Source of the DNA: a virus
Length of the DNA: 46,380 nt
Strand: one strand, 5' to 3'
UHGV virus genome: UHGV-0285588
Positions 5,562 through 39,266 of this stretch are shown piece after piece; positions within the stretch are counted from its first letter, which is position 1, and each line of letters starts with the position of its first letter. The position numbers were made by a program, and so were the translations under genes. The notes beneath the pieces were generated by a model that did no database searches, was not told where the DNA came from, and saw nothing but the letters and a program-made list of their open reading frames with translations.

Positions 5562-5658
5562 GTCTAAATCCTGTTTTCATAATGACGTAATTATACCATT
5601 GACAGGGCGTGCAAAGCTGACGTAGATTGAAAGCATAAGGTGATTGAGGGTTTGACAT

Positions 5659-5787
5659 ATGAACGAGACTGATGCTGATTTGAGATTTTACATCGACCTG
5701 TACGTTGATTGCGGGTTTACCTATGATGAGGCCCGCGTAAAGGCGATTTTGTTACTGGCTAAGATTGGCGTAGTGGTTGAGGATTAA
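5659..5787 (+). CDS. hypothetical small protein (42 aa), first gene of a plus-strand moron cassette
   Basis: ATG about 25 nt downstream of a motif promoter. MNETDADLRFYIDLYVDCGFTYDEARVKAILLLAKIGVVVED. Coordinates are accurate to 1-2 nt. Confidence 0.35.
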   Translation: MNETDADLRFYIDLYVDCGFTYDEARVKAILLLAKIGVVVED

Positions 5788-5789
5788 AA

Positions 5790-5942
5790 ATGCCAGTCAA
5801 TAAAGACGACGAAGATGTGATATCTGCATATGCAGGCCAACGCATCGATATAAACTACGCGATAGCAATTCACCTGCGACGCGCTGAGTTTATCGCCAAT
5901 CTGATTTTGTGTGGTATAAAGAATAAAACCAGGAGAGCTTGA
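5790..5942 (+). CDS. hypothetical small protein B1 (50 aa), paralogue of 6278..6430
   Basis: MPVNKDDEDVISAYAGQRIDINYAIAIHLRRAEFIANLILCGIKNKTRRA, about 80 percent identical to the ORF at 6278. Its stop overlaps the TTG/ATG start of the next ORF. Confidence 0.45.
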   Translation: MPVNKDDEDVISAYAGQRIDINYAIAIHLRRAEFIANLILCGIKNKTRRA

Positions 5943-6259
5943 TGGATATTGAATATGTAGGTGAAGATGATGGCGATCATTCTGATGGTGAACTTACAGG
6001 CTTGAGGGAGTCAGCGGACGATGAGAACCGCTATGCATGCGAGCAATACCTTGACGCCTTGGTAACAATTGAACTAGCAACTAAGTTTGCCATGATGGAG
6101 TCTCGCCAGGTTAACAAATCAATACGCGCGTGCTGGTCAGCAATCAGGCCGCGAATTGATAATAAATTAAACCGCCAGATATTCGATGGCATGGCTAATC
6201 AGTTTATGCCGCATGGCGCGCTGTGTATGTTGCGCCGTCAGCTTGATGAGTGTGTATGA
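5939..6259 (+). CDS. hypothetical acidic protein (106 aa)
   Basis: Track ORF, translationally coupled to B1. Asp/Glu-rich N-terminus. Confidence 0.45.
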   Translation: MMDIEYVGEDDGDHSDGELTGLRESADDENRYACEQYLDALVTIELATKFAMMESRQVNKSIRACWSAIRPRIDNKLNRQIFDGMANQFMPHGALCMLRRQLDECV

Positions 6260-6277
6260 TGTTGCGGGAGAAAACCA

Positions 6278-6430
6278 ATGGTGGTTGACCAAACAGATGC
6301 TGATGTCATATCCGCCTATGCCGGACAGTGCATTGACATTAATTACGCGATTGCCATTCACTTAAAGCGATCTGAGTTTATGGCTAATCTGATTTTGTGG
6401 GCGATTAAAAATAAGACGAGGAAGGCGTGA
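6278..6430 (+). CDS. hypothetical small protein B2 (50 aa), paralogue of 5790..5942
   Basis: MVVDQTDADVISAYAGQCIDINYAIAIHLKRSEFMANLILWAIKNKTRKA. GTGA overlap with the next ORF. Confidence 0.45.
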   Translation: MVVDQTDADVISAYAGQCIDINYAIAIHLKRSEFMANLILWAIKNKTRKA

Positions 6431-6627
6431 TAATGAGAGCCATTCATAAAATAAAAAAAGAAAGCCATGTGAACGAAATGATTGAATATTACGGCTGGAT
6501 TTATGTCCATAAATTTAAATCTTCGCATGGTAACATGCGGAGGATAGCAAGAAGAATGGAGCGAGATGGCAAATTAAAGATGATATCTCAAGATAAGTTG
6601 TTTTTTAGATATGTCAGAACAGAATAA
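6427..6627 (+). CDS. hypothetical basic small protein (66 aa)
   Basis: Track ORF coupled to B2. Lys/Arg-rich. Followed by a strong bidirectional terminator. Confidence 0.4.
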   Translation: MIMRAIHKIKKESHVNEMIEYYGWIYVHKFKSSHGNMRRIARRMERDGKLKMISQDKLFFRYVRTE

Positions 6628-6655
6628 ACCCCCTTTCGGGGGTTTTTTTATTGCG
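6628..6655. terminator. bidirectional intrinsic terminator (aaaccccctttcgggggttttttt)
   Basis: GC hairpin flanked by A and T runs, between the convergent 6427..6627 (+) and major tail (-) genes. Confidence 0.7.
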
Positions 6656-7403: not shown

Positions 7404-7448
7404 GTTTAGAATCCTCTCTGTTTAGCTAAACAATCGCATTATATCATG

Positions 7449-7477
7449 TTGACAGCTTTTGATTGGTGGCGTAGATT
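7449..7477 (+). promoter_or_regulatory. sigma70-type promoter TTGACA-17 nt-TAGATT, preceded by TGGCG (motif family)
   Basis: TTGACA at 7449-7454 and TAGATT at 7472-7477. Faces a coding-free, structured region. A same-strand terminator lies at 8281. Confidence 0.55.
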
Positions 7478-7650
7478 TAATGGCAGATAGTTTTCGGTGC
7501 GACTTTGCGGGTTTTTAGAAACTGACCACAAAGATAAATGCAAACGAAGAAATGTATCTGGCAGTAGCCTAACGGCTAAACACCAGCAAGGTCTTCCGAC
7601 TCCTTGTCAATGAATTCGGCGCACTGGCCCGGTGTGATTAATGATGGGCA

Positions 7651-7759
7651 CACAACAGGTAAGAGCATTGTCAGGTAGCTTCAGGGGACACGCCCGCACT
7701 GGTGACGACCTATGCGCAAAAGTACGTGTGGTAAGTCCTGGAGTGCTCTTTCCGTTGTG
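7651..7759 (+). repeat. structured element 1
   Basis: 5' arm cacaacaggtaagagcattg and 3' arm gtgctctttccgttgtg. The arms can pair over about 17 bp and flank about 72 nt. Confidence 0.6.
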
Positions 7760-7865
7760 ACCAGCAAGACCATACAACACGCGCAATAATCTTAACCGTA
7801 GCGTGTGTTGCTGGGCCGGGAATGGGTTAACATTCAAGAGTGAGATGGTGCGTCACTCCACAACA

Positions 7866-7947
7866 CACAACAGGTAAGAGCATTGGGCATTTGAGGGCTG
7901 TTCCACCCTATCTGATGTCGAGCCAAGCCAGTGCTCTTTCCGTTGTG
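7866..7947 (+). repeat. structured element 2
   Basis: Same arms as element 1, flanking about 45 nt of different internal sequence. Confidence 0.6.
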
Positions 7948-8092
7948 GTAATGCGGCTATGCGCACGTGGCAAGGTAGAAATATGCTCCTTTTGTGGGTA
8001 TGCCTGCTGGATTTACCGACCAGCAACCTGGAGGCACCAGGGCCACAACAATAATTCGAATCCTGTCGCGGGAACCATATTCGGTGAGCGCA

Positions 8093-8278
8093 ATGATACA
8101 AATCCAAAAAATCCACTATGATTACTGGCGCATAGCTGACCAAAATAATAGCAGGGTTGCTGGTATATCAAAGGTCGGGAAGTGGTATGTTGTCGCAAAT
8201 GCTAATGGGCGATATGATGCCCGATTCGAATATCTTGGCGATGCCATTGATTATTTATTATGTAGTAATGACTACTAA
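8093..8278 (+). CDS. hypothetical small protein (61 aa) co-transcribed with the structured RNA
   Basis: ATG 8093 preceded by GGTGAG. MIQIQKIHYDYWRIADQNNSRVAGISKVGKWYVVANANGRYDARFEYLGDAIDYLLCSNDY. Its stop is 2 nt before the terminator. Confidence 0.4.
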   Translation: MIQIQKIHYDYWRIADQNNSRVAGISKVGKWYVVANANGRYDARFEYLGDAIDYLLCSNDY

Positions 8279-8280
8279 AA

Positions 8281-8305
8281 GCCGCTCATCAGCGGCCTTT
8301 TTTTA
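8281..8305 (+). terminator. intrinsic terminator gccgctcatcagcggc + T7
   Basis: Perfect 6-bp GC stem followed by a T-run on the plus strand. Abuts the stop of the minus gene 8303..8686. Confidence 0.7.
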
Positions 8306-10223: not shown

Positions 10224-10384
10224 TAATTATTCTCCGAATGATGAACTTCCAGCATCTGTACACCTGAACCAGCGAAAGCGCCATGACGATAACGCCGATT
10301 GCTATATCCAATTTCGCCGCCTTACGTTTTTCAGCACGGAACAGCGCGGGTTGAGTGTTGTTGGTTTAATTTTATCATAAAGTG

Positions 10385-10427
10385 TTGACGTAGATTGAGG
10401 GTGTCGCTATAGTGATGACGTAGAAAC
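10385..10427 (+). promoter_or_regulatory. motif pair plus sigma70 promoter. TTGACGTAGATTGA at 10385-10398, TATAGT at 10408-10413, second copy TGACGTAGAAAC at 10416-10427.
   Basis: TTGACG-17 nt-TATAGT is a near-consensus sigma70 promoter. The second motif copy straddles the predicted start. Confidence 0.55.
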
Positions 10428-10435: not shown

Positions 10436-10747
10436 ATGTTAGAGGTGATGAGGATGAATGAATTCAAAGGTACGCCGGGGCCGTGGTTTGGAGATAACAG
10501 CAGGGCAATAGGGCCAAAATCAACAGATGACGACCAGTCTTATGGAGTGATTATTCCTGTCGGCTGGGTTGAGTTTGACCCTGAAGTTGAGGTTCAAGTT
10601 GCCAACCAACGAATGATGGCCGCTGCGCCGGAATTGCTGGAGGCTCTGGAGATGCTTGTAGTCTTCACTACGCCAACAAAAAGGAATGCCACTGCCTTGA
10701 GCAAGGCCTATGCCGCAATCGCAAAAGCACTCGGAGAACCCCAATGA
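10436..10747 (+). CDS. Ead/Ea22-like early protein
   Basis: ANQRMMAAAPELLEALEML matches the conserved AAPELLEAL core of Ead/Ea22-like phage proteins. Confidence 0.4.
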   Translation: MLEVMRMNEFKGTPGPWFGDNSRAIGPKSTDDDQSYGVIIPVGWVEFDPEVEVQVANQRMMAAAPELLEALEMLVVFTTPTKRNATALSKAYAAIAKALGEPQ

Positions 10748-10860
10748 TCCGCCACGAAATACGAAAAGAAGACCTGAAGGCGTGGGATAAGTTCAAAATC
10801 AAGCTGGCGTTAATCGTTATCGGATTCGCCATTGCCAGTGCAATCTGTTTATCAAAGTGA
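10744..10860 (+). CDS. small membrane peptide (about 38 aa)
   Basis: MIRHEIRKEDLKAWDKFKIKLALIVIGFAIASAICLSK. Overlaps the neighbouring ORFs. Not in the track. Confidence 0.25.
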   Translation: MIRHEIRKEDLKAWDKFKIKLALIVIGFAIASAICLSK

Positions 10861-11683
10861 GGGAAAGATGACATCTCTCGGAAAAATTTACTCAGACAAA
10901 GAAACTCGCGGCGGAATCGTGGTCAACAAAGGTTATCAGGTCCCTGTCGACCAGCTTTACCTTGAGCCGGGGTACAACATCCGCGAAGCCGATGAGCAGC
11001 ACGTTGAATACTTCGCGCAGTGTTGGGAATCAGGACAGCCAATCCCGGCATTAACTGTTATTCCTGATGCCGACGGAAAGCGCATCAAGATTCTTGACGG
11101 CCAGCATCGTTACCTTGGAGCACTGCGTGCCATTGAGCGCGGCGTGCCAATTGCGCGAATTGAGTGCAAAGACTTCACCGGCGATGAGGCGGATAAAATC
11201 GCCTTCATGGTGTCTTCAAGTCAGGGCAAGCAACTCGACCCGCTTGAGCGTGCAAAGGCTTATGTGCGCCTCAAAGGGTTCGGGTGGACGAATGAAGAAA
11301 TCGCCAAGAAGGTCGGGCGCTCTGTGTCTGATGTGCAAATGCACCTGTCACTTGGTGATGTACCTGATGCCATCAAGCAGCGTATCAATGCAGGCCAAAT
11401 CAGCTATGCCAACGCCGTTGCGGTCGCACGTGAGCATGGCGATGATGCCGTTAACGTTATTGATGCCGCCGTTGAGGAAGCGAAAGCGCAGGGCAAAGAT
11501 AAGGTGACGGCTAAAACGCTCAAGGCCAAAAAAGTTAAGCCGATTGACCGCCTGATTCAGTTGCTGAAAGAAGCAGACCATATGGTTGTCGCTGAGGGTC
11601 ATGTGGCGCAGGAGACAGAAGAATTTTTGCGCCTTCCTTCTGCGGAGTTGAGTGAAGTTCTGGCGATTCTGGAGAAGCTGTGA
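10832..11683 (+). CDS. ParB-like nuclease domain protein
   Basis: KILDGQHRYLGALRAI matches the ParB/Srx N-terminal signature. 283 aa. Confidence 0.6.
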   Translation: MPVQSVYQSEGKMTSLGKIYSDKETRGGIVVNKGYQVPVDQLYLEPGYNIREADEQHVEYFAQCWESGQPIPALTVIPDADGKRIKILDGQHRYLGALRAIERGVPIARIECKDFTGDEADKIAFMVSSSQGKQLDPLERAKAYVRLKGFGWTNEEIAKKVGRSVSDVQMHLSLGDVPDAIKQRINAGQISYANAVAVAREHGDDAVNVIDAAVEEAKAQGKDKVTAKTLKAKKVKPIDRLIQLLKEADHMVVAEGHVAQETEEFLRLPSAELSEVLAILEKL

Positions 11684-12678
11684 TGACAGCCAGCTACTAC
11701 AACGAATGGGACGCAAGTGCAGCGGCGTGGCTGCGAGAGTTAATTAACAATAAACTAATTCCTTACGGATATGTCGATGAACGATCAATCACCGAAGTCA
11801 CCCCTTCAGACCTGGAAGGATTTACACAGTGTCACTTCTTTGCCGGAATCGGAGGGTGGCCCCTTGCACTCCAGTTGGCTGGAATACCAGCAAGCACTCA
11901 GCTCTGGACAGGATCACCACCTTGCCAGCCGTTTAGCGTTGCCGGTAAGTCTCTCGGATTTGACGACGAGCGGCACCTTGCCCCAGCATTTCTCAGGCTC
12001 ATCAGAGAGTGCAAGCCTCAATTGCTGTTTGGAGAGCAGGTTGCGGCAGCAATTGGAAAGCACTGGCTCGATTTTGTATTCCTTAACCTGGAAGACAAAG
12101 GCTACGCCTGCGGGTCGGCAGTATTGCCAGCGTGCAGCGTCGGTGCACCACACAAACGCGACAGACTTTTCTTCGGCGCGATGCAACTGGGCGACACCAA
12201 TAGTGAACGACACAACTGGCAGCACGCATTGCTACAGCGGGAAGGACAGGAAGATATGTCTGAAGTTACCCGGACAGGCGAAGCTGGCAGCGTGGCCGAC
12301 GTCAACGACACGCGACCACAAGGATGGGAAGGAATGCTTGAACGTGCCTACAAGCAGCCTGCTGGGGCGGGAAGTGTGGAAGGTTGGACCAATCCGCATC
12401 ACGGCTTCTGGTCAGATGCTGACTGGATCGGATGCCGGGATGGAAAGTTCAGGCCAGTTGAGGCCTGGACACAGCAGATGGTTGATGGGGTTCCCGGCGG
12501 AATGGGACATAGCGGCGATCCGTGCGTTGCAGCAGCCTTTGAAGAAATCGGATTCCCGCTTGGAAGAGACATCCCGGCGCGCGTTGCCCGCCTCAGAGGA
12601 TACGGCAATGCAATCGTACCCCAGTGCGCTGCCGAATTCATCGCCGCTTTCAGAGGGGCTATTGAAGACTTGTTCTGA
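11680..12678 (+). CDS. DNA (cytosine-5) methyltransferase
   Basis: Motif I FFAGIGG, motif IV SPPCQPFS, ENV-like FGEQV, motif VIII RDRLFF and a C-terminal GYGNAIVP motif. 332 aa. Confidence 0.8.
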   Translation: MMTASYYNEWDASAAAWLRELINNKLIPYGYVDERSITEVTPSDLEGFTQCHFFAGIGGWPLALQLAGIPASTQLWTGSPPCQPFSVAGKSLGFDDERHLAPAFLRLIRECKPQLLFGEQVAAAIGKHWLDFVFLNLEDKGYACGSAVLPACSVGAPHKRDRLFFGAMQLGDTNSERHNWQHALLQREGQEDMSEVTRTGEAGSVADVNDTRPQGWEGMLERAYKQPAGAGSVEGWTNPHHGFWSDADWIGCRDGKFRPVEAWTQQMVDGVPGGMGHSGDPCVAAAFEEIGFPLGRDIPARVARLRGYGNAIVPQCAAEFIAAFRGAIEDLF

Positions 12679-13120
12679 GTGCGCCGAAGAAAAACCTATT
12701 TCCGAGTTTACGTTTGATAAGCGCAGGGGAAGTTACACCTCAAAATGTACTAAGTGCAGAACGAAGAAAACAAAGGAATGGCGAGATAAAAATCCGAATT
12801 ACGAAAAGGAGAGGTACGGCGTTAATGAAGATAGAGATAGGTGGAGACACATAAAAAGAAAGTACGGGATTAGCAAAGAAGAATATGTCGAGATGCTGGA
12901 TTCTCAAGGAGGCAGATGCGCCATATGCGGAGATGAACCTGGTGAAAGATATTCTCATCAACTGCACGTTGACCACTGTCACGCTTCAGGTAAGGTCAGG
13001 GGGTTACTGTGTCGGGGATGCAACCATATGCTTGGAGTAATCAAGGACGATGAAGTGTTGCTTTTTAAAGCAGTGGAATATCTACGCAAGTCGCAGCGGA
13101 ATTCATTAAAGCATTCATGA
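12608..13120 (+). CDS. recombination endonuclease VII-like (zinc-binding HNH type)
   Basis: CSECAEEKPISEF...HVDHCHASGKVRGLLCRGCN. The only in-frame ATG with an AGAGGA ribosome-binding site lies inside the methyltransferase 3' end. The first 280 codons of track ORF 11771..13120 are an out-of-frame overlap and are rejected. Confidence 0.55.
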   Translation: MQSYPSALPNSSPLSEGLLKTCSECAEEKPISEFTFDKRRGSYTSKCTKCRTKKTKEWRDKNPNYEKERYGVNEDRDRWRHIKRKYGISKEEYVEMLDSQGGRCAICGDEPGERYSHQLHVDHCHASGKVRGLLCRGCNHMLGVIKDDEVLLFKAVEYLRKSQRNSLKHS

Positions 13121-13130
13121 GGTCAGTTTA

Positions 13131-13305
13131 ATGAACCCCGAGCAATTCATAGAGAAAAACCTGCGCGAAAAACTGCCAGGCATCGACAACGCGGCTATAG
13201 AGGCCGCAATTACCCACTACAGGAGCAACCAGAGTGAAAAGAATGGCAAGATTTTCGATGAATGCCTGAAGGTTGCAAAACAACACATGATAAAGGTGAA
13301 GTGAC
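13131..13305 (+). CDS. hypothetical protein (58 aa)
   Basis: Its stop overlaps the GTG start of the next ORF. Confidence 0.3.
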
Positions 13306-13840
13306 GAAACTAAAAATCAACAAACTATTACTTGAATCAGCATTAATATTTCAGGCGCGCAACGATGTGCGCTACTACCTGAACGGAATCTGCTTCATGC
13401 CTGATGGTCGCATTGCGTCAACTGACGGTCATCGCGCCATGATTGCCAGTAAGCACGAAAACAAGATAAAAAGTAACGTCATCGTATCGGTAAGCAAGTC
13501 GCCAACTAAGCGTTATGCGCATGCGCTACTGGACACCAAAACAGGTATTGTTACTTACCATGACGAGCATGAAATCATGGTAGGCGCAGGTATCTGCTCT
13601 GAGATTAATGGCCGATTCCCTGATATTGATCGCGTCATTCCTAAGCAGACCGCACCAGCGGAACAGATTGGCTTTAATGCCAAATACCTGGAAGATGTTG
13701 AGAAGCTGGCGAAGTTGTTTAACCCGAAATTTGAAGCGGTGCTATTTGAGTTGAATGGCAACACCAGCGCCGCCGTCGCAAACATCAGTGCGCCTACTGG
13801 CGAGACTGCAAAAGTTATCGTTATGCCAATGAGGATTTAG
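13301..13840 (+). CDS. truncated DNA polymerase III beta sliding-clamp homologue (two-domain DnaN-like)
   Basis: DVRYYLNG, ASTDGHRAMIA, GRFPDIDRVIPK and the C-terminal VIVMPMRI align with conserved DnaN blocks (DVRYYLNG, ATDGHRLAV, GRFPDYRRVLPK, VVMPMRL). Only about 180 aa, so one clamp domain is missing. Confidence 0.55.
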   Translation: MTKLKINKLLLESALIFQARNDVRYYLNGICFMPDGRIASTDGHRAMIASKHENKIKSNVIVSVSKSPTKRYAHALLDTKTGIVTYHDEHEIMVGAGICSEINGRFPDIDRVIPKQTAPAEQIGFNAKYLEDVEKLAKLFNPKFEAVLFELNGNTSAAVANISAPTGETAKVIVMPMRI

Positions 13841-14094
13841 TGATGAAAAAGAATGGTGTTTTTACTCAGAAAGATGGCTCAAAAGTTGCCCGTCTTGGCG
13901 ATGGTTACGTTGGCATTAAATTTGGCTATTGCAATGGAGAAAAGTTAATAGCTTTTGCGAATACCATAAATCGCGGCATTCCTGGCGATAAAACTAATGA
14001 TACTGATGAGTCTGAAATTTACATCGCATTTAAAGATAATGCCGCAATCCAGCGGCTGATTGATAATCTCATTCAACTTCGCGACCATAAGTAA
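13840..14094 (+). CDS. hypothetical protein (84 aa)
   Basis: Track ORF coupled to the clamp-like gene. Followed by a terminator. Confidence 0.35.
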   Translation: MMKKNGVFTQKDGSKVARLGDGYVGIKFGYCNGEKLIAFANTINRGIPGDKTNDTDESEIYIAFKDNAAIQRLIDNLIQLRDHK

Positions 14095-14122
14095 ACAAAG
14101 CCCCTGTCGGGGCTTTTCTTTT
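14095..14122. terminator. bidirectional terminator (aagcccctgtcggggctttt)
   Basis: GC hairpin with a T-run, between convergent genes. Confidence 0.65.
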
Positions 14123-14123
14123 G

Positions 14124-14954
14124 TCACGGAAGATAAGCGTCATCCTCAAACCACGAAACGTAAGCATTGATAGTTTGCGCCGCAGTATCCAGGGATGTAA
14201 TGCGTAACAGGTAGGTAGTATTAGGCGCCATGATAACCTGTTCACCGAGTTTTGCCTGTGAATTGCCCTGCCCCTGATTAGATGCGTTCCCTTCACTATA
14301 GGTCGCGGCCACCGTCAGCTGCCCAATGCTTGTAACCGTAGAGCCAGTCAGAAGCTGTGCCGTTGCAGCATGGGGAGCAACATCATTTGGGTTGTTAATC
14401 TCCGCAGCGGTGCCGCCAGTGGCTACAGCCCCACGGTAAATGGATGCTATGACACCCTTACCGGTGTAGCCAATGATGCGCTGATTGAACACGACCTGCT
14501 TTGAGCCGGTAATAAAAATGCTGTCAAGGTTGGCCCCGCCAGCAACATCGGTCACGCGACGCGATGCGGTGAATAGCTTTCCCTGCTTATTGGCAAGCTC
14601 CGAGTAGGACTGCGCGACAACCTGACTTGATGGCACTGAGGTATCAGCTCGCCACACCAGGACTTTCAGGGATGCAACGCCAGCAGGAAGCTGCGACTTG
14701 ATTACTTTCAGTCGCAATGCCACGCCATAATAATTATTATTGTTAACGTCAATCCAGAAATCACCAGACGCGAACGGAGACACCATTACGGAAACAGAGC
14801 CGCTTGTTAATGGTGCATGACCGCCGGAAGAATTTAATGGCACAATCTGCACCTGCAATGCAGTCCAGTCTGCTGACATGGTTTCGCTAAGCAAAACTTC
14901 TCCGTCAGCCGGAGTTGTGTTTATTTCGTACCTGACAGCCATGATAACCCCCAA
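14124..14954 (-). CDS. virion structural protein (possible head decoration or fibre)
   Basis: 276 aa, Ser/Thr/Gly/Val-rich and beta-rich in composition. Last gene of the head block. Confidence 0.35.
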   Translation of the reverse strand: MGVIMAVRYEINTTPADGEVLLSETMSADWTALQVQIVPLNSSGGHAPLTSGSVSVMVSPFASGDFWIDVNNNNYYGVALRLKVIKSQLPAGVASLKVLVWRADTSVPSSQVVAQSYSELANKQGKLFTASRRVTDVAGGANLDSIFITGSKQVVFNQRIIGYTGKGVIASIYRGAVATGGTAAEINNPNDVAPHAATAQLLTGSTVTSIGQLTVAATYSEGNASNQGQGNSQAKLGEQVIMAPNTTYLLRITSLDTAAQTINAYVSWFEDDAYLP

Positions 14955-14960
14955 TAAAAA

Positions 14961-14985
14961 ACCCGCTTGTTTGCGGGTTTATTTT
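14961..14985 (-). terminator. intrinsic terminator (minus strand)
   Basis: aaacccgcaaacaagcgggtttttt on the minus strand. Confidence 0.5.
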
Positions 14986-15178
14986 ACTTGGTTTTCTTCG
15001 TCTTTGGCTGCGATTCTTGCGGAGTTGCAACTTCCAGAATTTTCTCACTAACCGGGCGAAGTTTTGACTCAATGTGCGGAGTCGATTCGTCAATCACGTC
15101 GCCAATGGCAAGCTCGCGCAGACGGCCATCTTTATCCTTGACGAAGATTCCGCTGGCGATTACTTCATATTTAGCCAT
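14984..15178 (-). CDS. small head-associated protein (64 aa)
   Basis: Track ORF between two terminators, directly downstream of the major capsid gene. Confidence 0.35.
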   Translation of the reverse strand: MAKYEVIASGIFVKDKDGRLRELAIGDVIDESTPHIESKLRPVSEKILEVATPQESQPKTKKTK

Positions 15179-15194
15179 GATAACCTCTTATAGT

Positions 15195-15222
15195 TAAAAG
15201 GGGCTTTCGCCCCTTTGTTTTT
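15195..15222 (-). terminator. hairpin terminator after the major capsid gene
   Basis: ggggctttcgcccc flanked by T-runs on both strands. Confidence 0.55.
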
Positions 15223-16309
15223 ACAGCGCGGTTTGCGTGCCGTATGCGTTAAACACCTTGCTTCGGCCAGAGAAATCCCGGCGAATTTGCAAACCCATAG
15301 CAGCCCACGTTAAAAAGTTAAAGTTAGCGTGAGGCGTGGTACGCGGCTCTGCATAGGTAGATACCGGCTGAGCGACGCGAGGGCGGATATACAGCGCATT
15401 CTTCACATAGCCGACAAAATGGTTCCCGGTCAGCTTGAAGTTGGTGCCGATAGACGCGATGCGGCCAACGTTGCCGGTTTTGCCGAATGCGAGGATATAA
15501 TCCTCAATGGTGCCGCCTTTGAAGCCTGCCGCGTTGGAATACGGGCGGCTGAATGAGCGACGCACAGACGGAGAAACCCACAGAGTAACCGGCTCGAACA
15601 CGTTTTGCGCATCGAGAACCGCCTGGAAATCCTGGTTGAAGAACTTAACGATTTCATCAGGGGTTGCCGTTTGCAGGTCGATGCTCAGCGCGCCAGTGCC
15701 AGAGGGGCCTAGGTTGAGCTGCACGGTGTTCGGGTGGTTGGTGATGCCGTAGGCAGTATAAACGCCGTTCACGTTCAGGCTTGCATCGCCGACCAGCAGA
15801 TAATCCGCCATGTCTGCGCGCAGGTTGAAGGTGGTGCTTTCCTGGTCATCAATCAGAGGGTCGAAACCTTCGGACTGCATACCCATCAGCTCGCGCCACT
15901 CTCGGCCATAACCGGTTTTGAAGATCGGAATTACATCGCCACTGTAGGAATAGCGGGTTTTATCCAGGTCTTCAGGCTCCTGACCGGAGATGGTGCGCAC
16001 AACCTTGCCAGCATCGGAGGCCATGCGGCTGATCGCTACGGTCTTACCGATATTGATGTTGGTCGCTAGCGTCATCAGGTCGGCCATCATGTCCATGCCG
16101 GACTCGTTGCGGAATACACGGGTGGTCACGTCGTCCACTTCGCGCCAGTAGTCTTTCGTTACCAGTGCGGTGGCGTTTACGCCGTACTCTTTCGCCAGAG
16201 CGTTTTCACCATTGATGAAAACCTTGCGGTCAACAGTCAGGTGGCGCCATTGCTCTTTAACCACCTGCGAGTTGGTGATTAAGCCTTTCGTAAAGATAAT
16301 CTTTTCCAT
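15221..16309 (-). CDS. major capsid protein (DUF2184-like)
   Basis: 362 aa. Follows a DUF2213-like and a DUF2190-like gene. A strong terminator lies immediately downstream. Confidence 0.6.
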   Translation of the reverse strand: MEKIIFTKGLITNSQVVKEQWRHLTVDRKVFINGENALAKEYGVNATALVTKDYWREVDDVTTRVFRNESGMDMMADLMTLATNINIGKTVAISRMASDAGKVVRTISGQEPEDLDKTRYSYSGDVIPIFKTGYGREWRELMGMQSEGFDPLIDDQESTTFNLRADMADYLLVGDASLNVNGVYTAYGITNHPNTVQLNLGPSGTGALSIDLQTATPDEIVKFFNQDFQAVLDAQNVFEPVTLWVSPSVRRSFSRPYSNAAGFKGGTIEDYILAFGKTGNVGRIASIGTNFKLTGNHFVGYVKNALYIRPRVAQPVSTYAEPRTTPHANFNFLTWAAMGLQIRRDFSGRSKVFNAYGTQTAL

Positions 16310-16320
16310 TGTTCGGCTCC

Positions 16321-18188: not shown

Positions 18189-18212
18189 GACCTTTCTCCG
18201 CGCTTACTTTAT

Positions 18213-18715: not shown

Positions 18716-18987
18716 TTGTTAATATTCTCCTCCAAAGCTCTAATAACAGCGCGGGTCAGGAGACCCTCACCATTCATGGCTACGTGCGCTTTTATCTCGC
18801 TAAGCGCTGCCTTTAAAACGCCAACACTTACCGTAACAACTCGCTTATTATCTTCATTTATTTTCTTCAATCTCTCTATTGCTGTTAGCTCTTCCACTAT
18901 CCACCCCATCTCTCTACGATTATTGGCCGTGCGTTCACATTTGGTGACAAACAGCACGTTTCCTGATTTATGCTTTACTGCCCACAT
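18712..18987 (-). CDS. hypothetical protein (91 aa)
   Basis: Translationally coupled track ORF. Confidence 0.4.
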   Translation of the reverse strand: MWAVKHKSGNVLFVTKCERTANNRREMGWIVEELTAIERLKKINEDNKRVVTVSVGVLKAALSEIKAHVAMNGEGLLTRAVIRALEENINK

Positions 18988-19499
18988 GACTGGCGCGCCC
19001 CGGCAAGCAACTTTTCAAACATCATCCTGTCACGACTCATTCCAAACGGGATGATTTCCTGCCAGTAATATTTCCATGCGCCGCCGGGAAGCATTTCGCG
19101 GTCAACCTGACCAATGCTTGCCAGATAGCGCATGCGTGCCTTGAGGATGGTGTAATTGACGCCTACAGCCTCTGCTATCTGCTTGCTCTTGCGTCCCGGG
19201 TTCGCCTCAAGATAGGTCTGAATTGCCAGGTCAAGCGCAGTATTATCGGGATTGAGGAAATACTTAAAGCAGCGCCTGCCATAGCTGACGCTTTCCTCTT
19301 TAATAATAAATCCCATACCCTCCAGCTCAATCAGATAACCTGTAACGCTGGCTCGGTTTGTCATGCCAGTCTGCTTGCGTATCATGGCATTGGTTGCGCC
19401 GCCGCAGCGCTCTATCACCGTTAGTATTTGCGTTTTAAAGTCCATTTGCGCGCTCCAGTGCATCCTGTTTGTAGTCGCTAACTGTATATAGGAAGCCAT
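18975..19499 (-). CDS. putative DNA-binding regulator with two winged-helix-like segments
   Basis: Two helix-turn-helix-like stretches (ATNAMIRKQTGMTNRASVTGYL and KSKQIAEAVGVNYTILKARMRYL). 174 aa. Confidence 0.4.
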   Translation of the reverse strand: MASYIQLATTNRMHWSAQMDFKTQILTVIERCGGATNAMIRKQTGMTNRASVTGYLIELEGMGFIIKEESVSYGRRCFKYFLNPDNTALDLAIQTYLEANPGRKSKQIAEAVGVNYTILKARMRYLASIGQVDREMLPGGAWKYYWQEIIPFGMSRDRMMFEKLLAGARQSCGQ

Positions 19500-20403: not shown

Positions 20404-20447
20404 TTACAATCTACACCAGCAAGTATTGACTAATTGACGTAGATTCG
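20404..20447. promoter_or_regulatory. divergent motif pair. Minus-strand GGTGTAGATTGTAACAT at 20404-20419, plus-strand TTGACGTAGATTCG at 20434-20447.
   Basis: Both copies lie 25-30 nt upstream of the start codons at 20379 (-) and 20476 (+). Confidence 0.55.
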
Positions 20448-20475
20448 TCAAGATGATTTTCACAGGAGAGCGACA

Positions 20476-28338: not shown

Positions 28339-30873
28339 TCATCTCCTGCTCCTTCTAATCCATCCAGAGCCACGCTGTACGATGTGATCGTTGCATGCAT
28401 ATCTGATTGCGTCAATGAAGTGGTTCCACGCATCCACAATATTTGTTAGCACGTTACCCGTCAGCTTGTCCACCTTGTAACTGTACATAGTGAACTCTTC
28501 CTGAGTCTGTGTGCAGCGGTCATGAATGATGATGCTGTCGCAACCCCTGAGCCAGGTTACACCATCCTCCACGCTCCCGGGCCACTTATTGCATGGATGG
28601 ATATCAAATCCTGCGCGTTTGATGTGACTGATTGTTTCTGGCCGAGAGCAGTCCCCATACCATCTTGCCTTCCTGGAGAGTGGGAATGATTGCTCCATCG
28701 CTGTAGGTGTGTCGGTAATCTCAAGGCCTACACGGCCGTATTCGCGCGCGACGTAAAGGTTGCGGCGGTCATCAGGAAGTTTCTCAATGTAAACCTCAAC
28801 CATCGCCGTTGCGTCCTGCGAGAATCCAAAGTCGATGCCAAAGTAAGGCCCATGCCATTCCGGCTTAACCTCGAAATCAGCAACGCGCCACTTACCGCCA
28901 AATACCTGCTCATCATTACGCTTATTAAAGCGCCCACCCCACACCCATTGATAGCGGTCGAAGTCGGTTTCTTTCATGCGCTGCATTTGGCTTGGGAGCG
29001 GAGTATCCCAGAACCACGGATTGTCTGAGTAATTACACTCGATAATCAGGTTTTCATCATCCTCATAGATGCCGCCATTTTCGCGCAATTTATTATAAAA
29101 AGGCTCAACCCATATTTTCCACGTCGGGTCATGCTCTTTATTTGGGTTGAAAGTCACCCATATCTCTGACCCTTCAGCGCGGACTGTTGGGGTGAGGATT
29201 TCCCAGCTTGTCTGGCTGACGTTTTCCGCCTCCTCGACCCAAGCTACTGTAATGCCAGCGAAGCCTTTTACGGTCGTCTGGTTGCGATACAGGCCTTTAA
29301 AACGGAACTTTGCTTTCGTTACCTTGTGTGTTATTTCGTTGTTGATGACGCGAAACTCTTTTGTCTCGCCCTTCCTGTCAATCTCGTCTTTCAGCTCCTG
29401 ATATGAACTATCCTCAATAGACTGCTGAATCTCACGAAAACAAGCTATCCTGTCAGGCTTAAAGCGTGCACGCTCCGTAAGTATTGTTGTTACTGTCCTT
29501 GTTTTTCCGCTGTTGTGTGTAACCGTGCCATCAGCAAGCAGGAAAAGATGATCGCCATCAATAGTGAACCCAGCGTATTCACCATGCCCGACATAAGACA
29601 ATGACACCTCAGTCATCTTTCCACGGGTTGACTTGGTTTTCTCTGCTATCTTCCTTTTTACTCGGCATGGGATTGTATGAAGGTCACCACTAACGAACAC
29701 CTCCCACACATCCTTTTCGTATATTCTTTTCTCGCCTTTATACTCAAAGGTGACATCGGTCTTTTTGATTATGCTTGACTTGAAGCCAAGTGATCTTGCC
29801 ACATCCATCAAAGAGAAGGCTATATCTTTATTTATTGATGTAAAACAATAGCTTTTCTTTTCTTTGTGGTAATGCGAATCAGTATCCAATAGCCCAGCCA
29901 GAATCTGAAGTCTTACCTCTCTGCTGTTTTTGATATAGCAGTCAGGTATGTGTTTATTATTAATCACCCCAAGCTGCTGCATTTTAGTTAGTAACGGGTT
30001 GGTGTTCTTCCCCATGCCAGCAGCTCGACCATTAGTTATCGCATAGACAGGGCATCTATCATCGTCGCGAACCTTTACCTGCATCCCGTATTGGCTTGCC
30101 ACGTTGTGAATGTAGTCAACTATCTCTGGATCAGGCGTGCACACTTCAACACCACGAGATGAACCATCACCTAACCATAAACCAAGAAAGTACGGGTCAA
30201 CTGGGACGCTTTGGTCATTAAAATCCCATCCTGTTCGCCACCCTTTAAAGACATGGCGGAACTTTTTGGAAGTTGCGCGCGACAAATATTCTGAAACACC
30301 AATATTCAGTATTTCAGGTTCATTCGGGTAATAACGATAAATTCTTTTACCATCCGGTGTTTTTGTCTCGTCACTGATAGCAGATGGAATCTTTCGTAAT
30401 GACAGTATGTGACTTGAGTTGACGGTGTAGTCATCAGCATATTTTTGATGAACCGTATACATGTCATCAAACCCACGACAGATGTTTAAAACATTTCGTG
30501 GTTTACTGTCTGGACCCATAACCTTATCGCCAACAACGATATCCTCTACGCGTTTTAGGCTACCATCAAACATCCTCACCATCGTGCCGATGGCTAAGCA
30601 TCCGCGCCCGCCAAACACAATCTTATTACGCTTGGGGTAAAGTAGCTTTTCCAGCTTTTCTGGTATCAGGTGATCAACGCCAATATCAGAGTCGCTAACG
30701 TCATCAACTCCGCTTTGCGTCATTTTGAGTTTGCGAACAATCTGCTTATCTGTATTAACAACACCGAACACCGCAGATTCAGGCGCATCAATCACGCCAT
30801 CGCCAATAATCTCTTCAAGTTTTTCAATTGCTGGTGCTGACAGTCTTTTGCGTGCCATATATAGATTCCTCAT
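28339..30873 (-). CDS. terminase large subunit, containing an intein
   Basis: The Walker A motif is split (VFGGRG | intein | SGKTRT). The extein has terminase ATPase and nuclease-like regions. Confidence 0.8.
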   Translation of the reverse strand: MRNLYMARKRLSAPAIEKLEEIIGDGVIDAPESAVFGVVNTDKQIVRKLKMTQSGVDDVSDSDIGVDHLIPEKLEKLLYPKRNKIVFGGRGCLAIGTMVRMFDGSLKRVEDIVVGDKVMGPDSKPRNVLNICRGFDDMYTVHQKYADDYTVNSSHILSLRKIPSAISDETKTPDGKRIYRYYPNEPEILNIGVSEYLSRATSKKFRHVFKGWRTGWDFNDQSVPVDPYFLGLWLGDGSSRGVEVCTPDPEIVDYIHNVASQYGMQVKVRDDDRCPVYAITNGRAAGMGKNTNPLLTKMQQLGVINNKHIPDCYIKNSREVRLQILAGLLDTDSHYHKEKKSYCFTSINKDIAFSLMDVARSLGFKSSIIKKTDVTFEYKGEKRIYEKDVWEVFVSGDLHTIPCRVKRKIAEKTKSTRGKMTEVSLSYVGHGEYAGFTIDGDHLFLLADGTVTHNSGKTRTVTTILTERARFKPDRIACFREIQQSIEDSSYQELKDEIDRKGETKEFRVINNEITHKVTKAKFRFKGLYRNQTTVKGFAGITVAWVEEAENVSQTSWEILTPTVRAEGSEIWVTFNPNKEHDPTWKIWVEPFYNKLRENGGIYEDDENLIIECNYSDNPWFWDTPLPSQMQRMKETDFDRYQWVWGGRFNKRNDEQVFGGKWRVADFEVKPEWHGPYFGIDFGFSQDATAMVEVYIEKLPDDRRNLYVAREYGRVGLEITDTPTAMEQSFPLSRKARWYGDCSRPETISHIKRAGFDIHPCNKWPGSVEDGVTWLRGCDSIIIHDRCTQTQEEFTMYSYKVDKLTGNVLTNIVDAWNHFIDAIRYACNDHIVQRGSGWIRRSRR
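29512..30600 (-). mobile_element. intein with LAGLIDADG homing endonuclease (363 aa) inserted in the terminase P-loop
   Basis: Starts with Cys (CLAIGTMV) and ends with THN followed by Ser at +1. Two LAGLIDADG blocks are present (LGLWLGDGSS and LAGLLDTDSH). Confidence 0.75.
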
Positions 30874-30957
30874 CAGGGCATCATTGAAGTGAATGCAGCA
30901 GGCGGTGATGAGTCGCTTTTCGGGTGCCCCCTAGCCGCATTAATTATTATAAATCAG

Positions 30958-31374: not shown

Positions 31375-31420
31375 AGATAAAACCTATCAATATTCCGCTT
31401 TTTTTCCGTTATTCGATATT

Positions 31421-31445
31421 GTAACAGATTCTACACCATGACGTT
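31421..31445 (-). promoter_or_regulatory. minus-strand motif TGGTGTAGAATCTGTTACAAT upstream of the terminase genes
   Basis: Contains TAGAAT and TACAAT, which are -10-like hexamers. A terminator lies just upstream. Confidence 0.45.
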
Positions 31446-31449: not shown

Positions 31450-31480
31450 GCAAAAAAAGAACCCGCCGAAGCGGGTTAAA
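31450..31480 (-). terminator. intrinsic terminator (minus)
   Basis: aacccgcttcggcgggttcttttttt on the minus strand. Confidence 0.6.
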
Positions 31481-33534: not shown

Positions 33535-33930
33535 AATCCGCCTGGGGTAAAATTTACCCCTGTGGGTAAGGTGCTGGGGCAGGTTAATTGCCCCAGATTT
33601 TTCGCGGTAAGTTAATGTTAATATTGTAATTTAACAATTTAGGGGCAGCAGGGTATGTTTTCACTCATATCCCCTTATATATAACCCATATAATTCATTT
33701 GTTAATTTATTGTTAAAATAAAATCTATAATATGAATAATAATATACCCAATTAACCCAACTACTACTACTATTATTATAATACATACACTTACAGTAAA
33801 AAATCTTGGGGAAGATGGCCTTCCCCACAGTTAACCCAGCTAACCCTAAACAAAGTTTGTTTGCGGACGCTTTACGGAGGGTAATTTATGGGGTATCATG
33901 GTTAAAAGTCGTTAGCGAGGGTAAATTATG
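33535..33930. promoter_or_regulatory. candidate replication origin / control region with palindromes, GGTAA(A/T)TT iteron-like repeats and a 160-nt tract that is about 85 percent AT
   Basis: Perfect palindromes ggggtaaaatttacccc, ctggggcaggttaattgccccag and tggggaagatggccttcccca. Repeated GGTAA-type words. AT-rich low-complexity tract (actactactactattattataata). Confidence 0.4.
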
Positions 33931-34185
33931 TCTGCACATGGAAAGCTACTTAAGAAAAAAAGACTTTCATCATCCGGTGGCGGAAGGCCATCATCTACCG
34001 GGTTTAGAGGGGTTGACTTCCATAAGCACTCTGGATATTTCAGGGCTAGGATTGTTGTTAACCGACTAAGGTATGAGCTTGGCAGGTTTGAAACGGCAGA
34101 GGAGGCAAACGCAGCCGTACTTAAAGCTAAGCAGTGGCTATCAGAGAACCCACACGAATCATTTGCAACCGAGTATGAGGTTTAA
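33928..34185 (+). CDS. AP2-domain DNA-binding protein
   Basis: GFRGV...GYFRARI...LGRFETAEEANAAVLKA is the AP2/ERF-type fold signature. Good ribosome-binding site (GAGGGTAAATT-ATG). Confidence 0.6.
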   Translation: MSAHGKLLKKKRLSSSGGGRPSSTGFRGVDFHKHSGYFRARIVVNRLRYELGRFETAEEANAAVLKAKQWLSENPHESFATEYEV

Positions 34186-36834: not shown

Positions 36835-36850
36835 AATTTAACCTTGATTA

Positions 36851-36888
36851 TTGCCGTAGATTCAGTCTACTATTGTGACGTAGATTGA
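36851..36888 (+). promoter_or_regulatory. motif pair. TTGCCGTAGATTCA at 36851-36864, GTGACGTAGATTGA at 36875-36888.
   Basis: Immediately upstream of the helicase start. Confidence 0.55.
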
Positions 36889-38843
36889 GCAACATAAAGG
36901 TGGATGAAGTGCAAAAAATTGATTCGATGATTGCTGAGCTGGATATGGATAAGCTGCGTTCCAGCATCCATACCGGGGAAATTGAACCGCGACCCTATCA
37001 GTGGCTGGTATATGAAAAGACAGCGGAGGTTATCCGCAAGTTTGGTAAGCAGCCAAAGCCAAGTTATGTAACTGCTTCGGTTGGCGCCGGTAAGACCATC
37101 ATGATAGCCATGATTGCCCGTCGTTTCCAGGATATGGGGTGGGAGGGGCTTGTCATCGCGCGACAAGGCGAAATTATTGAGCAGGATGCAGAGGAACTCT
37201 GGAATCTGAGCGTAAAAAACTCTCTGTTTAGCGCGTCCCTTGGGCGCAAGGCATATGCGTATCCGCTTATCGCGGGAACGGAGGGCACAATAATAAATGG
37301 TCTTTTTGATAAGACAGCCGATGATGGCACAGTGACAAAATCTTTGCTTTCGGACTTTACCCCTCGCTACATACTTGTCGACGAATGTCACCAGGTTAAC
37401 TGGCAGGACATAATATCAGAGCATCCAGAGACGCAATACGGTGTCATCATGAATGAACTTAACCGGCGCTGTAAAGCGAAGTATGGGCATGAGGTGATTG
37501 TCATTGGCTACACCGGCAGCCCATTTCGCGGCGTTGAGTCGATCAAGGGGGCTTACTGGAAACACGAAATCGTCAACATCAGCACGAAATACCTTGTCGA
37601 TCTTGGGTTTCTTGTTCCTACCATCTTTGGTGGGCAGGATATCGAGGACTTGCAATACGATCTGCATGATTTTGCCAGTAGTGACGTTGACGGAGTGCAG
37701 GACTTTACTGATAGCCAGCTAAAAGAGATGCAGGAAGAAATTCTCAAGCAGGGTACATTGACGCAAAAAATAATGCTCAAAGTCATGGAGCTTACGCGCG
37801 ACAGACTCGGTGTACTCATTACCTGCGCCGGTAAGAAACATTGCAAGGAGGCTGCAAAATATTTACCAGAAGGCAGTTATTCCATTGTTACCGAGGATAT
37901 GGGGCAGAAAGCCAGACGGAAAGCGCTGAAAGATGCGGCAACCGGGCGCAAAAAATACACGCTGCAAATAGGTTGCCTGACGACTGGCGTCAACATCCCA
38001 TATTGGGACACGTCTGTCATCCTGAGAAAAATCATGTCCCTGACTCTTCTGACGCAGTTGCTTGGCAGACCAATGCGCCTGTTGAAGCCTGACCAGATTG
38101 CCGCAGGTCTGGTGAAAGAAAACCACCTTTGCCTTGACTTCACCGGAACCATGTTTGAGCTTGGCGGTCTGTACGAAGACCCTATTCTTGAGGAAGCAGA
38201 AGCGCAGCGCGCCAAGCGTAGCGGAGAGCAGGTTCCATGCCCTAAATGCCAGACGATGAACAGCCCATATGCACGGCGCTGCATCGGTAAAGACTCAACG
38301 TCTCCAGATGGCCGATGCGAAGAGTTTTTCAGCTTCATTCGCTGTGGTTTCGACAAGCACGGCATCCGTATTTTTGATGATGGTTGCGGCACAAAGAACG
38401 ACCCGACAGCTCGTTATTGCCGTCAGTGCGATCACGTTTTGCGCGACCCTAATGCGGCGCTTAATGAGCGAGCCTACACGGATAAAGAATGGACAGATGT
38501 GCAAGATTTTAAAGTCGAGTTGACTAAAGACGCTGAGGGGGTTCTTTATCGTTATCTGGTGGTAAAAGCTGATGGAAAGATCGGCTGGGCAAATGAGGTG
38601 TTTTATCCGTTCGGAGGAAAGCCAAAGCACCTGCGCGACATGTTTAAAATGAAGGCTCTGCTTCCGCACCTTGAAGACAAGTCCATGCTGAAGAAAATGA
38701 TGGAATGCCATGATGCGAAGACTTTCATGCATTACGCCGGTTTAATCCGCGCACCTAAACGCATCACGCATCGTTTTAACAATAAAGGCCGAGATATCAT
38801 CCACCGCAAGGATTTCATTGGAGAACAAATTGAAGCAGCTTGA
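36885..38843 (+). CDS. SF2 DNA helicase (DEAH-type) with C-terminal zinc ribbons
   Basis: Walker A VGAGKT, DECH box VDECHQV, and C-terminal CPKC...C and CRQC pairs. The true start is probably a GTG or ATG between 36900 and 36927. Confidence 0.7.
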   Translation: MSNIKVDEVQKIDSMIAELDMDKLRSSIHTGEIEPRPYQWLVYEKTAEVIRKFGKQPKPSYVTASVGAGKTIMIAMIARRFQDMGWEGLVIARQGEIIEQDAEELWNLSVKNSLFSASLGRKAYAYPLIAGTEGTIINGLFDKTADDGTVTKSLLSDFTPRYILVDECHQVNWQDIISEHPETQYGVIMNELNRRCKAKYGHEVIVIGYTGSPFRGVESIKGAYWKHEIVNISTKYLVDLGFLVPTIFGGQDIEDLQYDLHDFASSDVDGVQDFTDSQLKEMQEEILKQGTLTQKIMLKVMELTRDRLGVLITCAGKKHCKEAAKYLPEGSYSIVTEDMGQKARRKALKDAATGRKKYTLQIGCLTTGVNIPYWDTSVILRKIMSLTLLTQLLGRPMRLLKPDQIAAGLVKENHLCLDFTGTMFELGGLYEDPILEEAEAQRAKRSGEQVPCPKCQTMNSPYARRCIGKDSTSPDGRCEEFFSFIRCGFDKHGIRIFDDGCGTKNDPTARYCRQCDHVLRDPNAALNERAYTDKEWTDVQDFKVELTKDAEGVLYRYLVVKADGKIGWANEVFYPFGGKPKHLRDMFKMKALLPHLEDKSMLKKMMECHDAKTFMHYAGLIRAPKRITHRFNNKGRDIIHRKDFIGEQIEAA

Positions 38844-39246
38844 TAGCGGGATATGGGTATTCGACAGTGGTTATCGTGGAGAGTGCCCTAAAGAAGAGAC
38901 TGACCAGATGGGATATGGCCTTTGGATGCAACACCGATTTCCTGATGTCCTGTGGTTTCATGTCCCTAATGAGACAGGCACAAAGAGTGGGCCGCAATTC
39001 GTGGAGAAGCGCCGAAAGATGGGCGTCAGGAACGGTGTAAGCGACAATGTGATACTAACTCACGGCATTAATCATAAATGCGGCCTGATTGAGTTGAAGA
39101 GACGTGACAAGACAAAATCAAAAGTATCGCCATCGCAGATTGAGGTTCTTGAGTGCGCCATTGCAGAGGGTCACTTTGGCGCCATTGCTTATGGTCTTGA
39201 AGAGATAAAAAGAGCGACGTTATTCTATTTTGGGCTTGATGAATGA
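38818..39246 (+). CDS. VRR-NUC domain nuclease
   Basis: GVSDNVIL...GLIELKRRDKTKSKVSPSQ matches the VRR-NUC (PD-(D/E)xK) pattern. TTG start with an AAGGA ribosome-binding site. Confidence 0.5.
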   Translation: MENKLKQLDSGIWVFDSGYRGECPKEETDQMGYGLWMQHRFPDVLWFHVPNETGTKSGPQFVEKRRKMGVRNGVSDNVILTHGINHKCGLIELKRRDKTKSKVSPSQIEVLECAIAEGHFGAIAYGLEEIKRATLFYFGLDE

Positions 39247-39252
39247 CGTGGT

Positions 39253-39266
39253 TTGATGTAGATTGA
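39253..39266 (+). promoter_or_regulatory. motif TTGATGTAGATTGA
   Basis: About 25 nt upstream of the ATG at 39291. Confidence 0.5.

Follow-up and report, generated by a model that had tools for sequence, protein, structure and literature searches.

A box word used in two registers as the probable core of non-structural-gene promoters in a clade of small siphoviruses

The virus genome UHGV-0285588, whose whole stretch of 46,380 bp is referred to below as the window, represents a Klebsiella siphovirus in full and is circularly permuted, with one tail gene interrupted at the right end and resumed at the left. About 15 copies of a word of 11–14 bases, TGRYGTAGA(T/A)T (full form TTGACGTAGATTGA; hereafter the box), occur in this genome. 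The box is probably the conserved core of the promoters of non-structural genes in the clade to which the phage belongs, and the enzyme that reads it would be the sigma-70 RNA polymerase of the host. These box promoters are previously undescribed, and the literature that was searched describes no promoters and no such word for the clade, but their kind, i.e., clade-specific phage promoters of the sigma-70 type, is well known; the unusual feature is that one word is used in two registers.

Enrichment, conservation and geometry of the box

The original prediction, which was drawn up from the letters of the window, had listed copies of the word. Every copy on that list was found again to within 1–5 nt, and the word is in excess: GTAGATT occurs 13 times against 4.4 expected, a number reached in 0 of 100 shuffles, and the longer patterns TGRYGTAGA (15 copies, 0.98 expected) and TGNNGTAGAWT (13 copies, 0.59 expected) likewise show counts that no shuffle reached. 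Intergenic DNA makes up 6.9% of the window in the curated gene map, and 14 of the 15 box copies lie within it; for GTAGATT, 12 of 13 copies are intergenic against 0.83 expected, and this word is the most intergenic-enriched at k = 6, 7 and 8.

The intergenic boxes aim at a start codon on the same strand 17–54 nt downstream, with the sole exception of the box at 7467, which faces about 500 nt without a called gene; the earlier statement that every copy stands upstream of a cassette start on the correct strand is therefore sound as regards orientation, with a distance of 17–54 nt, and fails at 7467, where no gene is near. The identical leader that had been noticed in two cassettes is real: ACAGGAGAG is common to 20462 and 22832, where it is followed by 5 and 6 nt, respectively, and then by ATG. 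Paired copies in the window are spaced by 17, 24, 24 and 30 bp, which replaces the 18–31 bp first given. All 14 intergenic copies overlap a -10 element, a -35 element plus spacer, or the +1 position, and no box away from any promoter, such as a pure operator site would be, was found in the window. In total, the box heads eleven units, numbered P1–P11.

The phages YX3973, ZX4 and BUCT541 are 91–93% identical to the window. The group in question is Roufvirus/Skatevirus/Buchananvirus, and there is a proposal to make it a subfamily, 'Roufvirinae' (PMC11769527). For the comparison of boxes, the window was combined with six box-bearing relatives into a set of seven clade genomes from three genera with about 78% capsid-protein identity, and Kp4856-1 and phiA005, the two nearest phages outside the clade, were used as outgroups. 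Each of the seven clade genomes carries 12–17 copies of the box, and each outgroup carries 2, which is the chance level. At orthologous sites across the three genera the box is kept and the flanks diverge; the motif, whose possible absence from related phages had been raised by the original prediction, is thus a clade-specific one that is kept in relatives.

The GTAGATT contexts of the window and its six relatives amount to 74 unique sequences, of which 51 have TG four bases upstream and are promoter-like, the other 23 being mostly coding; these unique sites are not phylogenetically independent. A -35 hexamer (at least 4 of 6 matches) lies exactly 17–18 nt before TAGATT at 24 of the 51 TG-prefixed sites, in the form of TTGACA (n = 12), TTGACG (n = 7), TTGATG (n = 4) or GTGATA (n = 1). 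At about 15 more of the 51 sites, the TTGACG of the box itself is the -35, with a spacer of exactly 17 nt between it and a TATAGT, a CATAGT, a GATGAT or another box. A TTGACA-like -35 at 17 ± 1 nt is found in 8 of the 11 units of the window and at about 39 of the 51 unique sites; P4, P5 and P10 are the units without it. The earlier suggestion that the box acts as a -10 at some sites and as a -35 at others is borne out by this spacing across the 51 sites. The companion claim, which ruled out a simple -35/-10 pair, holds only in part, since 24 of the 51 are precisely such a pair (TTGACR-17/18-TAGATT) and about 15 more have TTGACG-17-YATAGT or a similar hexamer.

As a -10 hexamer TAGATT is usable, its T, A and T falling at -12, -11 and -7, respectively. 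Either TAGATT or TAGAAT is present in all boxes of the -10 register, in agreement with TAnnnT (A at -11, T at -7), and boxes in this register always end in TT or AT, so that the T at -7 is kept, while boxes elsewhere may end in AA or TA. When preceded by T, the 5' end of the box reads TTGACG, i.e., five of the six bases of the -35 consensus. Orthologous P9 sites differ in their -10: four genomes have TATAGT, whereas YX3973, SeSz-2 and Sa179lw have a second box in its place, so that the two are interchangeable as a -10. Taken together, the rule for the -10 ending, the exchange at P9 and the spacing to the -35 speak for TAGATT as a functional -10 hexamer for sigma-70 and for TTGACG as a functional -35. 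The best intergenic sigma-70-like matches of a simple promoter scan coincide with boxes, and the arrangement of two boxes 17 bp apart, a pattern of 29 nt, has 66 matches in IMG/VR, almost only in contigs of 44–50 kb, which is the genome size of the clade.

In the proposed mechanism, the box would serve as a -10 when it lies 17–18 nt after TTGACA, TTGACG or TTGATG and as a -35 when it lies 17 nt before TATAGT, CATAGT, GATGAT or a second box, and two boxes 17 bp apart would constitute a complete promoter by themselves. Each box promoter heads a cassette of small or DNA-metabolism genes, most of these cassettes being closed by a hairpin terminator, and the structural and lysis genes are served by a separate, -35-less TGnTAnAAT family. 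A phage protein on the box would shut off or coordinate the non-structural promoters. A reading of the box as a canonical extended -10 (TGnTATAAT) was considered and rejected; its TG is located at -17/-16, three bases before TAGATT and two too far upstream. The box does not match the sites of host transcription factors such as FNR, CRP, NarL and PhoB.

Parts of the box are held constant beyond the sigma-70 hexamers. Among 67 unique sequences selected as TTGACR-N17-TAGATT, the bases T-17, G-16 and G-13 are near-invariant and the 6-nt linker is hypervariable; among 21 unique sequences selected as TTGACG-N17-YATAGT, 18 have TAGATT right after the -35 in the spacer and one has TAGACT, the other 8–9 spacer bases being variable. 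Copies with no possible use as a -10 persist from genus to genus: in P3, TGACGTAGAAA stands at about +1, and P6 has TGATGTAGATA. The spacing within inverted box pairs is constant at 27 bp (7 cases), and of the two boxes at the conserved leftward promoter TTGACN-18-AATACT in the central divergent region, one falls in the spacer and one on the start site. The constancy of bases that known sigma-70 contacts leave unexplained makes a regulator-binding role plausible. Taken with the retained copies, the inverted pairs, the boxes of the leftward promoter and the three units that have a box and no -35 (P4, P5 and P10), it suggests a second reader of the box besides sigma-70; T-17, G-16, G-13 and the spacer TAGATT would mark this second function, most likely that of an operator for a phage protein.

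Several points weigh against the box as a promoter core read by sigma-70. The genome-wide total of sigma-70-like matches is no higher than in shuffles, and at P4, P5 and P10 the box has no recognisable -35; as the TG stands at -17/-16 and not at -15/-14, sigma-70 alone may not explain these three units. The IMG/VR loci were fetched with a pattern that contains the box, which biases part of the base constancy in the 67 and 21 sequences. In one promoter family the upstream box has degenerated to TGGATT, TTGATT or TGGGTT, and this family, together with a decayed extra copy at P11, indicates that not every copy is under selection. Finally, it is from the sequence that we infer both the promoter function of the box and the assignment of units to early and late expression.

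Box-driven units and the extended -10 family

The box units contain small open reading frames (ORFs), a KorB-like/methylase/endonuclease VII/RusA set, an operon with a winged-helix gene, a helicase, and an exonuclease/ERF/SSB set; no structural proteins are found in them by Pfam annotation, and most of them end in hairpin terminators. They presumably comprise the early and middle genes. P1 (5599..5628, plus strand) is a TTGACA-18-TAGATT promoter with the box TGACGTAGATT at 5618–5628, and it precedes a cassette of small ORFs (5659–6627, plus strand) with a terminator at its end (6626–6645). P2 (7449..7477, plus strand) is TTGACA-17-TAGATT with the box TGGCGTAGATT at 7467–7477; its unit consists of about 500 nt without a called gene, then an ORF at 7994–8278 and a terminator at 8281–8296. 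The slot of P2 carries transfer RNA (tRNA) genes in relatives, and no tRNA or known RNA was found downstream of P2 in the window. Past P2, at 7645–7763 and 7860–7951 (plus strand), there are two structured elements with identical long closing stems, CACACAACAGGTAAGAGCATTG ... AGTGCTCTTTCCGTTGTG, and different interiors, for which no Rfam or tRNA match was found; the ends of the YX3973 record map between them. Given these ends and the tRNA genes of relatives in the same slot, the elements may be noncoding RNAs or packaging-site repeats.

P3 (10385..10426, plus strand) is the site that had earlier been read as the -35 of TTGACG-17-TATAGT with a second copy near +1, and it was found to be so: its box TTGACGTAGATTGA is the -35, TATAGT follows 17 nt on (10408–10413), and the second box, TGACGTAGAAA, lies at 10416–10426 on the plus strand, at about +1. 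The unit of P3 is the KorB-like/methylase/endonuclease VII/RusA operon (10448–14094, plus strand). P6 (22789..22824, plus strand) is built similarly, with the box TTGACGTAGATTGA as the -35 and GATGAT 17 nt downstream; its second box, TGATGTAGATA, at 22814–22824 (plus strand) is inverted in SeSz-2 and Sa179lw, and its unit spans 22847–24113 (plus strand). In P7 (27973..28001, plus strand; unit 28028–28318, plus strand), two boxes stand 17 bp apart, the first being the -35 (TTGACG) and the second the -10 (TAGATT).

The central divergent region contains P4 and P5. The box of P4, TGGTGTAGATT at 20408–20418 on the minus strand, is without a -35, and upstream of it on the same strand lies the conserved P4', TTGACG(20451..20446)-18-AATACT(20427..20422); P4 and P4' together head the operon 20379→18371 (minus strand), which includes the winged-helix gene. 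P5 (20434..20451, plus strand; unit 20476–21579, plus strand) has its box in a perfect palindrome, TTGACG-TAGATT-CGTCAA, with no -35 at 17 nt. The P5 box is 27 bp from the inverted P4 box, and this spacing is kept in all clade genomes.

P8 (31418..31447, minus strand) combines the box variant TGGTGTAGAAT (31428–31438) with the adjacent TGTTACAAT (31418–31426); it comes directly after a terminator (31477..31460) and heads the unit 31374→30958 (minus strand). P9 (33490..33518, minus strand; unit 33459→31476, minus strand) has the box TTGACGTAGATTGA as its -35 and TATAGT 17 nt downstream. P10 (36851..36888, plus strand) contains the boxes TGCCGTAGATT and TGACGTAGATT, 24 bp apart and without a good -35, and precedes the helicase operon (36903–39246, plus strand). 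P11 (39236..39266, plus strand) is TTGATG-17-TAGATT with the box TGATGTAGATT at 39254–39264; its extra copy, ATGACGTGGTTTGA, is decayed and lies 10 nt upstream of the box, and its unit is the exonuclease/ERF/SSB operon (39291–41643, plus strand). YX3973 and Sa179lw have a different replication module with a gene for a Cro-like repressor; the YX3973 module (12678–21068) contains no GTAGATT, whereas that of the window has the box promoters P10 and P11, so that box usage follows the module. The AP2/DUF3987 unit has no box; ahead of it, at 33630–33900 (plus strand), the DNA is very rich in AT and contains TATAAT three times as well as a TTTACG-17-TATCAT promoter; this stretch may be an origin or a control region.

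The structural and lysis genes all lie on the minus strand and are preceded by -35-less extended -10 sites of the form TGnTAnAAT, with TG at -15/-14. The original prediction had placed the box in front of nearly every transcription unit, which is too broad: the box belongs to non-structural units only, and the structural and lysis units use TGnTAnAAT. The stricter TGnTATAAT has four sites, all of them immediately in front of structural blocks (tail, major tail, head and portal). The looser TGNTANAAT has 15 copies against 7.35 expected, and 14 of the 15 are on the minus, i.e., structural, strand. On the minus strand, extended -10 sites are located at 5590..5598 (TGGTATAAT, before the tail-gene block), 7438–7446 (major tail gene), 10369–10377 (head-tail genes), 18219–18227 (TGTTATAAT, head genes), 22772–22780 (lysis genes), 26606–26614 (portal gene) and 27982–27990; a plus-strand site is found at 20402–20410. 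The sequence GGTGTGTTATAAT at 18213–18242, which had been listed as a related form of the box, is no variant of the motif and is instead the extended -10 promoter TGTTATAAT of this second family. The units served by extended -10 sites would be the late ones.

Most extended -10 sites are back-to-back with a box promoter or overlap one, and many are only 3–11 bp from the -35 of the back-to-back box promoter. At 20402–20413 and 27979–27990, TAGATTnTAnCA holds two divergent, overlapping -10 hexamers that share bases with the box. Judging from the spacing alone, RNA polymerase would be able to occupy only one promoter of such a pair at once. A fixed gap between the late and early members of back-to-back pairs was considered and discarded; the gap varies between genera (3 to 14 bp; 5 to 9 bp), and the overlap alone is conserved.

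Three further observations concern the portal and terminase genes. The portal-gene promoter TGCTATAAT (26589–26614, minus strand) is immediately followed, before the gene, by a hairpin and a run of seven Ts, and this promoter-proximal terminator may point to antitermination or attenuation. The large terminase (28339–30873, minus strand) has 844 amino acids and includes an intein with Hint and LAGLIDADG homing-endonuclease domains, the terminase of relatives being about 474 amino acids long. Between this gene and a TATAAT at about 30950, an Rfam match to the int-alpA RNA occurs at 30878–30941 (minus strand) with 37.4 bits (gathering score 35.8).

Candidate binding proteins and alternative explanations

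Among alternatives, a lesser though appreciable possibility is that the box is primarily a dispersed asymmetric operator for a DNA-binding protein of the phage, which is compatible with promoter function and would alter only the constraint to which the word owes its form. Binding at the -10, at the -35 plus spacer or at +1 would close down every non-structural unit jointly, and the extended -10 promoters of the structural genes that overlap them would become accessible. Many dispersed copies do lie over promoter elements, and such an operator would account for the invariance of bases without an explanation in known sigma-70 contacts, for the retention across genera of the copies at +1 of P3 and in P6 that have no use as a -10, for the constant 27 bp of the inverted pairs, and for the two boxes that the conserved leftward promoter of the central control region has within its spacer and on its start site. 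The inversion of the second P6 box in SeSz-2 and Sa179lw suggests a function in either orientation. However, no box stands away from a promoter, and the 5' untranslated region around the second P3 box is conserved as a whole and not in the box alone.

The candidates for such a protein are the tandem winged-helix protein (18975..19445, minus strand) and a KorB-like protein (10868..11683, plus strand). The former is encoded in all six box-bearing relatives and in neither outgroup, and it is annotated as MarR-like in PHROG. The earlier reading of two winged helices is confirmed by a structure model with two such domains in tandem (pLDDT 76); nothing ties the protein to the box, for which it had been proposed as a binder at the same time. 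A sequence search against solved structures gave nothing significant, and a fold search returned generic tandem winged-helix and MarR-type matches only. As modelled, a tandem winged helix could read an asymmetric site as a monomer; on the other hand, its identity falls to 36–37% in genera that have exactly the same box, and it shares its pattern of presence and absence with about a dozen other small proteins. The KorB-like protein has ParB-helix-turn-helix (HTH) and KorB domains above the Pfam cut-offs and is 81–82% conserved across genera, with a 48% homologue in a box-less outgroup. The usual targets of KorB/ParB-type proteins are palindromes, unlike the box. The leader of the major-tail gene does contain one perfect palindrome, GTTTAGCTAAAC (7420–7431), which resembles the operators of IncP KorA/KorB; as a second repeated motif tied to the KorB-like protein it was rejected, being a single site with near matches at chance level. 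The AP2-like ORF at 33928–34185, which the original prediction had also named as a binder, has a weak Pfam match and is unlikely as a general binder because its gene is found in only one of the six box-bearing relatives. No relatives intermediate between 77% and 53% capsid identity were found, and with a box that is identical clade-wide this makes a test of covariation between the box and the candidate binders impossible.

The promoter-core reading and the operator may be combined, tentatively and with a good deal less confidence than is placed in the promoter core, into a dual-purpose box that is both the promoter core and the dispersed asymmetric operator of one phage protein, most plausibly the monomeric winged-helix protein. 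Such a protein, bound to the box in either register, would silence all non-structural units simultaneously and free the overlapping extended -10 promoters of the structural and lysis genes. Back-to-back promoters that exclude each other would thereby form a genome-wide early-to-late switch, in a siphovirus that appears virulent and seems to encode neither a polymerase nor a sigma factor.

Box promoters could also double as recombination points, through which relatives swap cassettes by means of identical border sequences; this role, which excludes none of the others, is rather unlikely. For T4-type phages, the exchange of promoter-terminator cassettes (PeSLs) has been shown (PMC2839356, PMC4122927). 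In the present clade, the cassettes past orthologous boxes vary and the box and one flank are kept (P1, P6, P7), and identity is lost on one side exactly at the box for P1, P7a, P11, P9 and P8, in an ungapped comparison without a control, in which indels can mimic breakpoints. Strong hairpin terminators close the cassettes, and in P8 a terminator is directly followed by the box promoter. Against this, mosaic junctions fall in intergenic DNA anyway, the shared 11–14 bp are short for homologous recombination, and most boxes are not fused with a terminator as a composite unit.

It is very improbable that the box is a promoter for a phage sigma factor or RNA polymerase, or for a host polymerase redirected by a MotA/AsiA-like pair. 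In favour are a consensus that is confined to the clade and exceeds a sigma-70 hexamer in length, the lack of a -35 in three units, and the position of the box in the -35 register, which is centred near -30, like the MotA box of T4. Scans of about 40 non-structural proteins with Pfam and PHROG gave no RNA polymerase, sigma, MotA or AsiA family, though remote homologues are possible, and the only match to sigma was a weak Sigma70_r4 inside the HTH of the KorB-like protein. Moreover, the geometry is that of classic sigma-70 promoters, with perfect TTGACA at 17 nt, and a -35 close to consensus is already part of the box where it lies in the -35 register. Chance, base composition or a residue of recent local duplications, which the decay of some extra copies (P11; the TGGATT family) might recall, can be set aside in view of counts that shuffles never reached, of 14 of 15 copies that are intergenic and correctly oriented, and of a box kept across three genera between diverged flanks.

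Significance and comparison with known systems

The phage group is large, includes many Klebsiella, Salmonella and E. coli phages under development for therapy and biocontrol, and has no published transcription map. The two promoter families give a map of transcription units and explain the odd layout in which small cassettes on the opposite strand lie inside structural operons; they also offer compact promoters and insertion points for the engineering of phages of the clade. If the extra bases of the box are an operator, a simple and testable model follows for a genome-wide timing switch that works through overlapping divergent promoters.

Three known systems come closest to the box: the early promoters of T4-type phages with their PeSLs, the C1 operators of phage P1, and the promoter switch brought about by AsiA and gp39. 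The C1 operators of phage P1 are asymmetric sites of 17 bp that are dispersed over the genome and overlap promoters. The box is similar in being a scattered asymmetric word, of which every copy lies over a promoter and some are paired, so that one protein could control many units; it differs in that only candidate binders are at hand, the phage appears virulent, and the box itself supplies the hexamers. AsiA of T4 and gp39 of the Thermus phage P23-45 block sigma region 4 and shift transcription from -35-dependent to extended -10 promoters. The division into a mostly -35-dependent non-structural family and a -35-less extended -10 structural family is alike; however, no AsiA- or gp39-like protein appeared in the scans, and three box units have no -35.

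T4 middle promoters are a poor match, as no MotA/AsiA-like proteins were seen among the approximately 40 proteins scanned, and the box near -30, instead of replacing the -35, contains TTGACG. IncP plasmids have a global KorA/KorB regulon with palindromic operators. A KorB-domain protein is encoded here as well, and many promoters have a common short site, but the box is no palindrome, and the lone KorA-like palindrome GTTTAGCTAAAC is a single site.

The early promoters and PeSLs of T4-type phages (PMC2839356, PMC4122927) are alike in being strong and sigma-70-like, with a consensus longer than the host hexamers, and in being repeated before small, non-essential and variable cassettes that end in stem-loop terminators among conserved structural blocks. 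They are unlike the box promoters in sequence, layout and phage group, the present phages being small siphoviruses. A composite of terminator and promoter, as in a PeSL, is found in P8 alone, the others being paired with divergent promoters; in the present clade, one word is used in two registers, and it usually stands back-to-back with an extended -10 promoter instead of being fused to a terminator.

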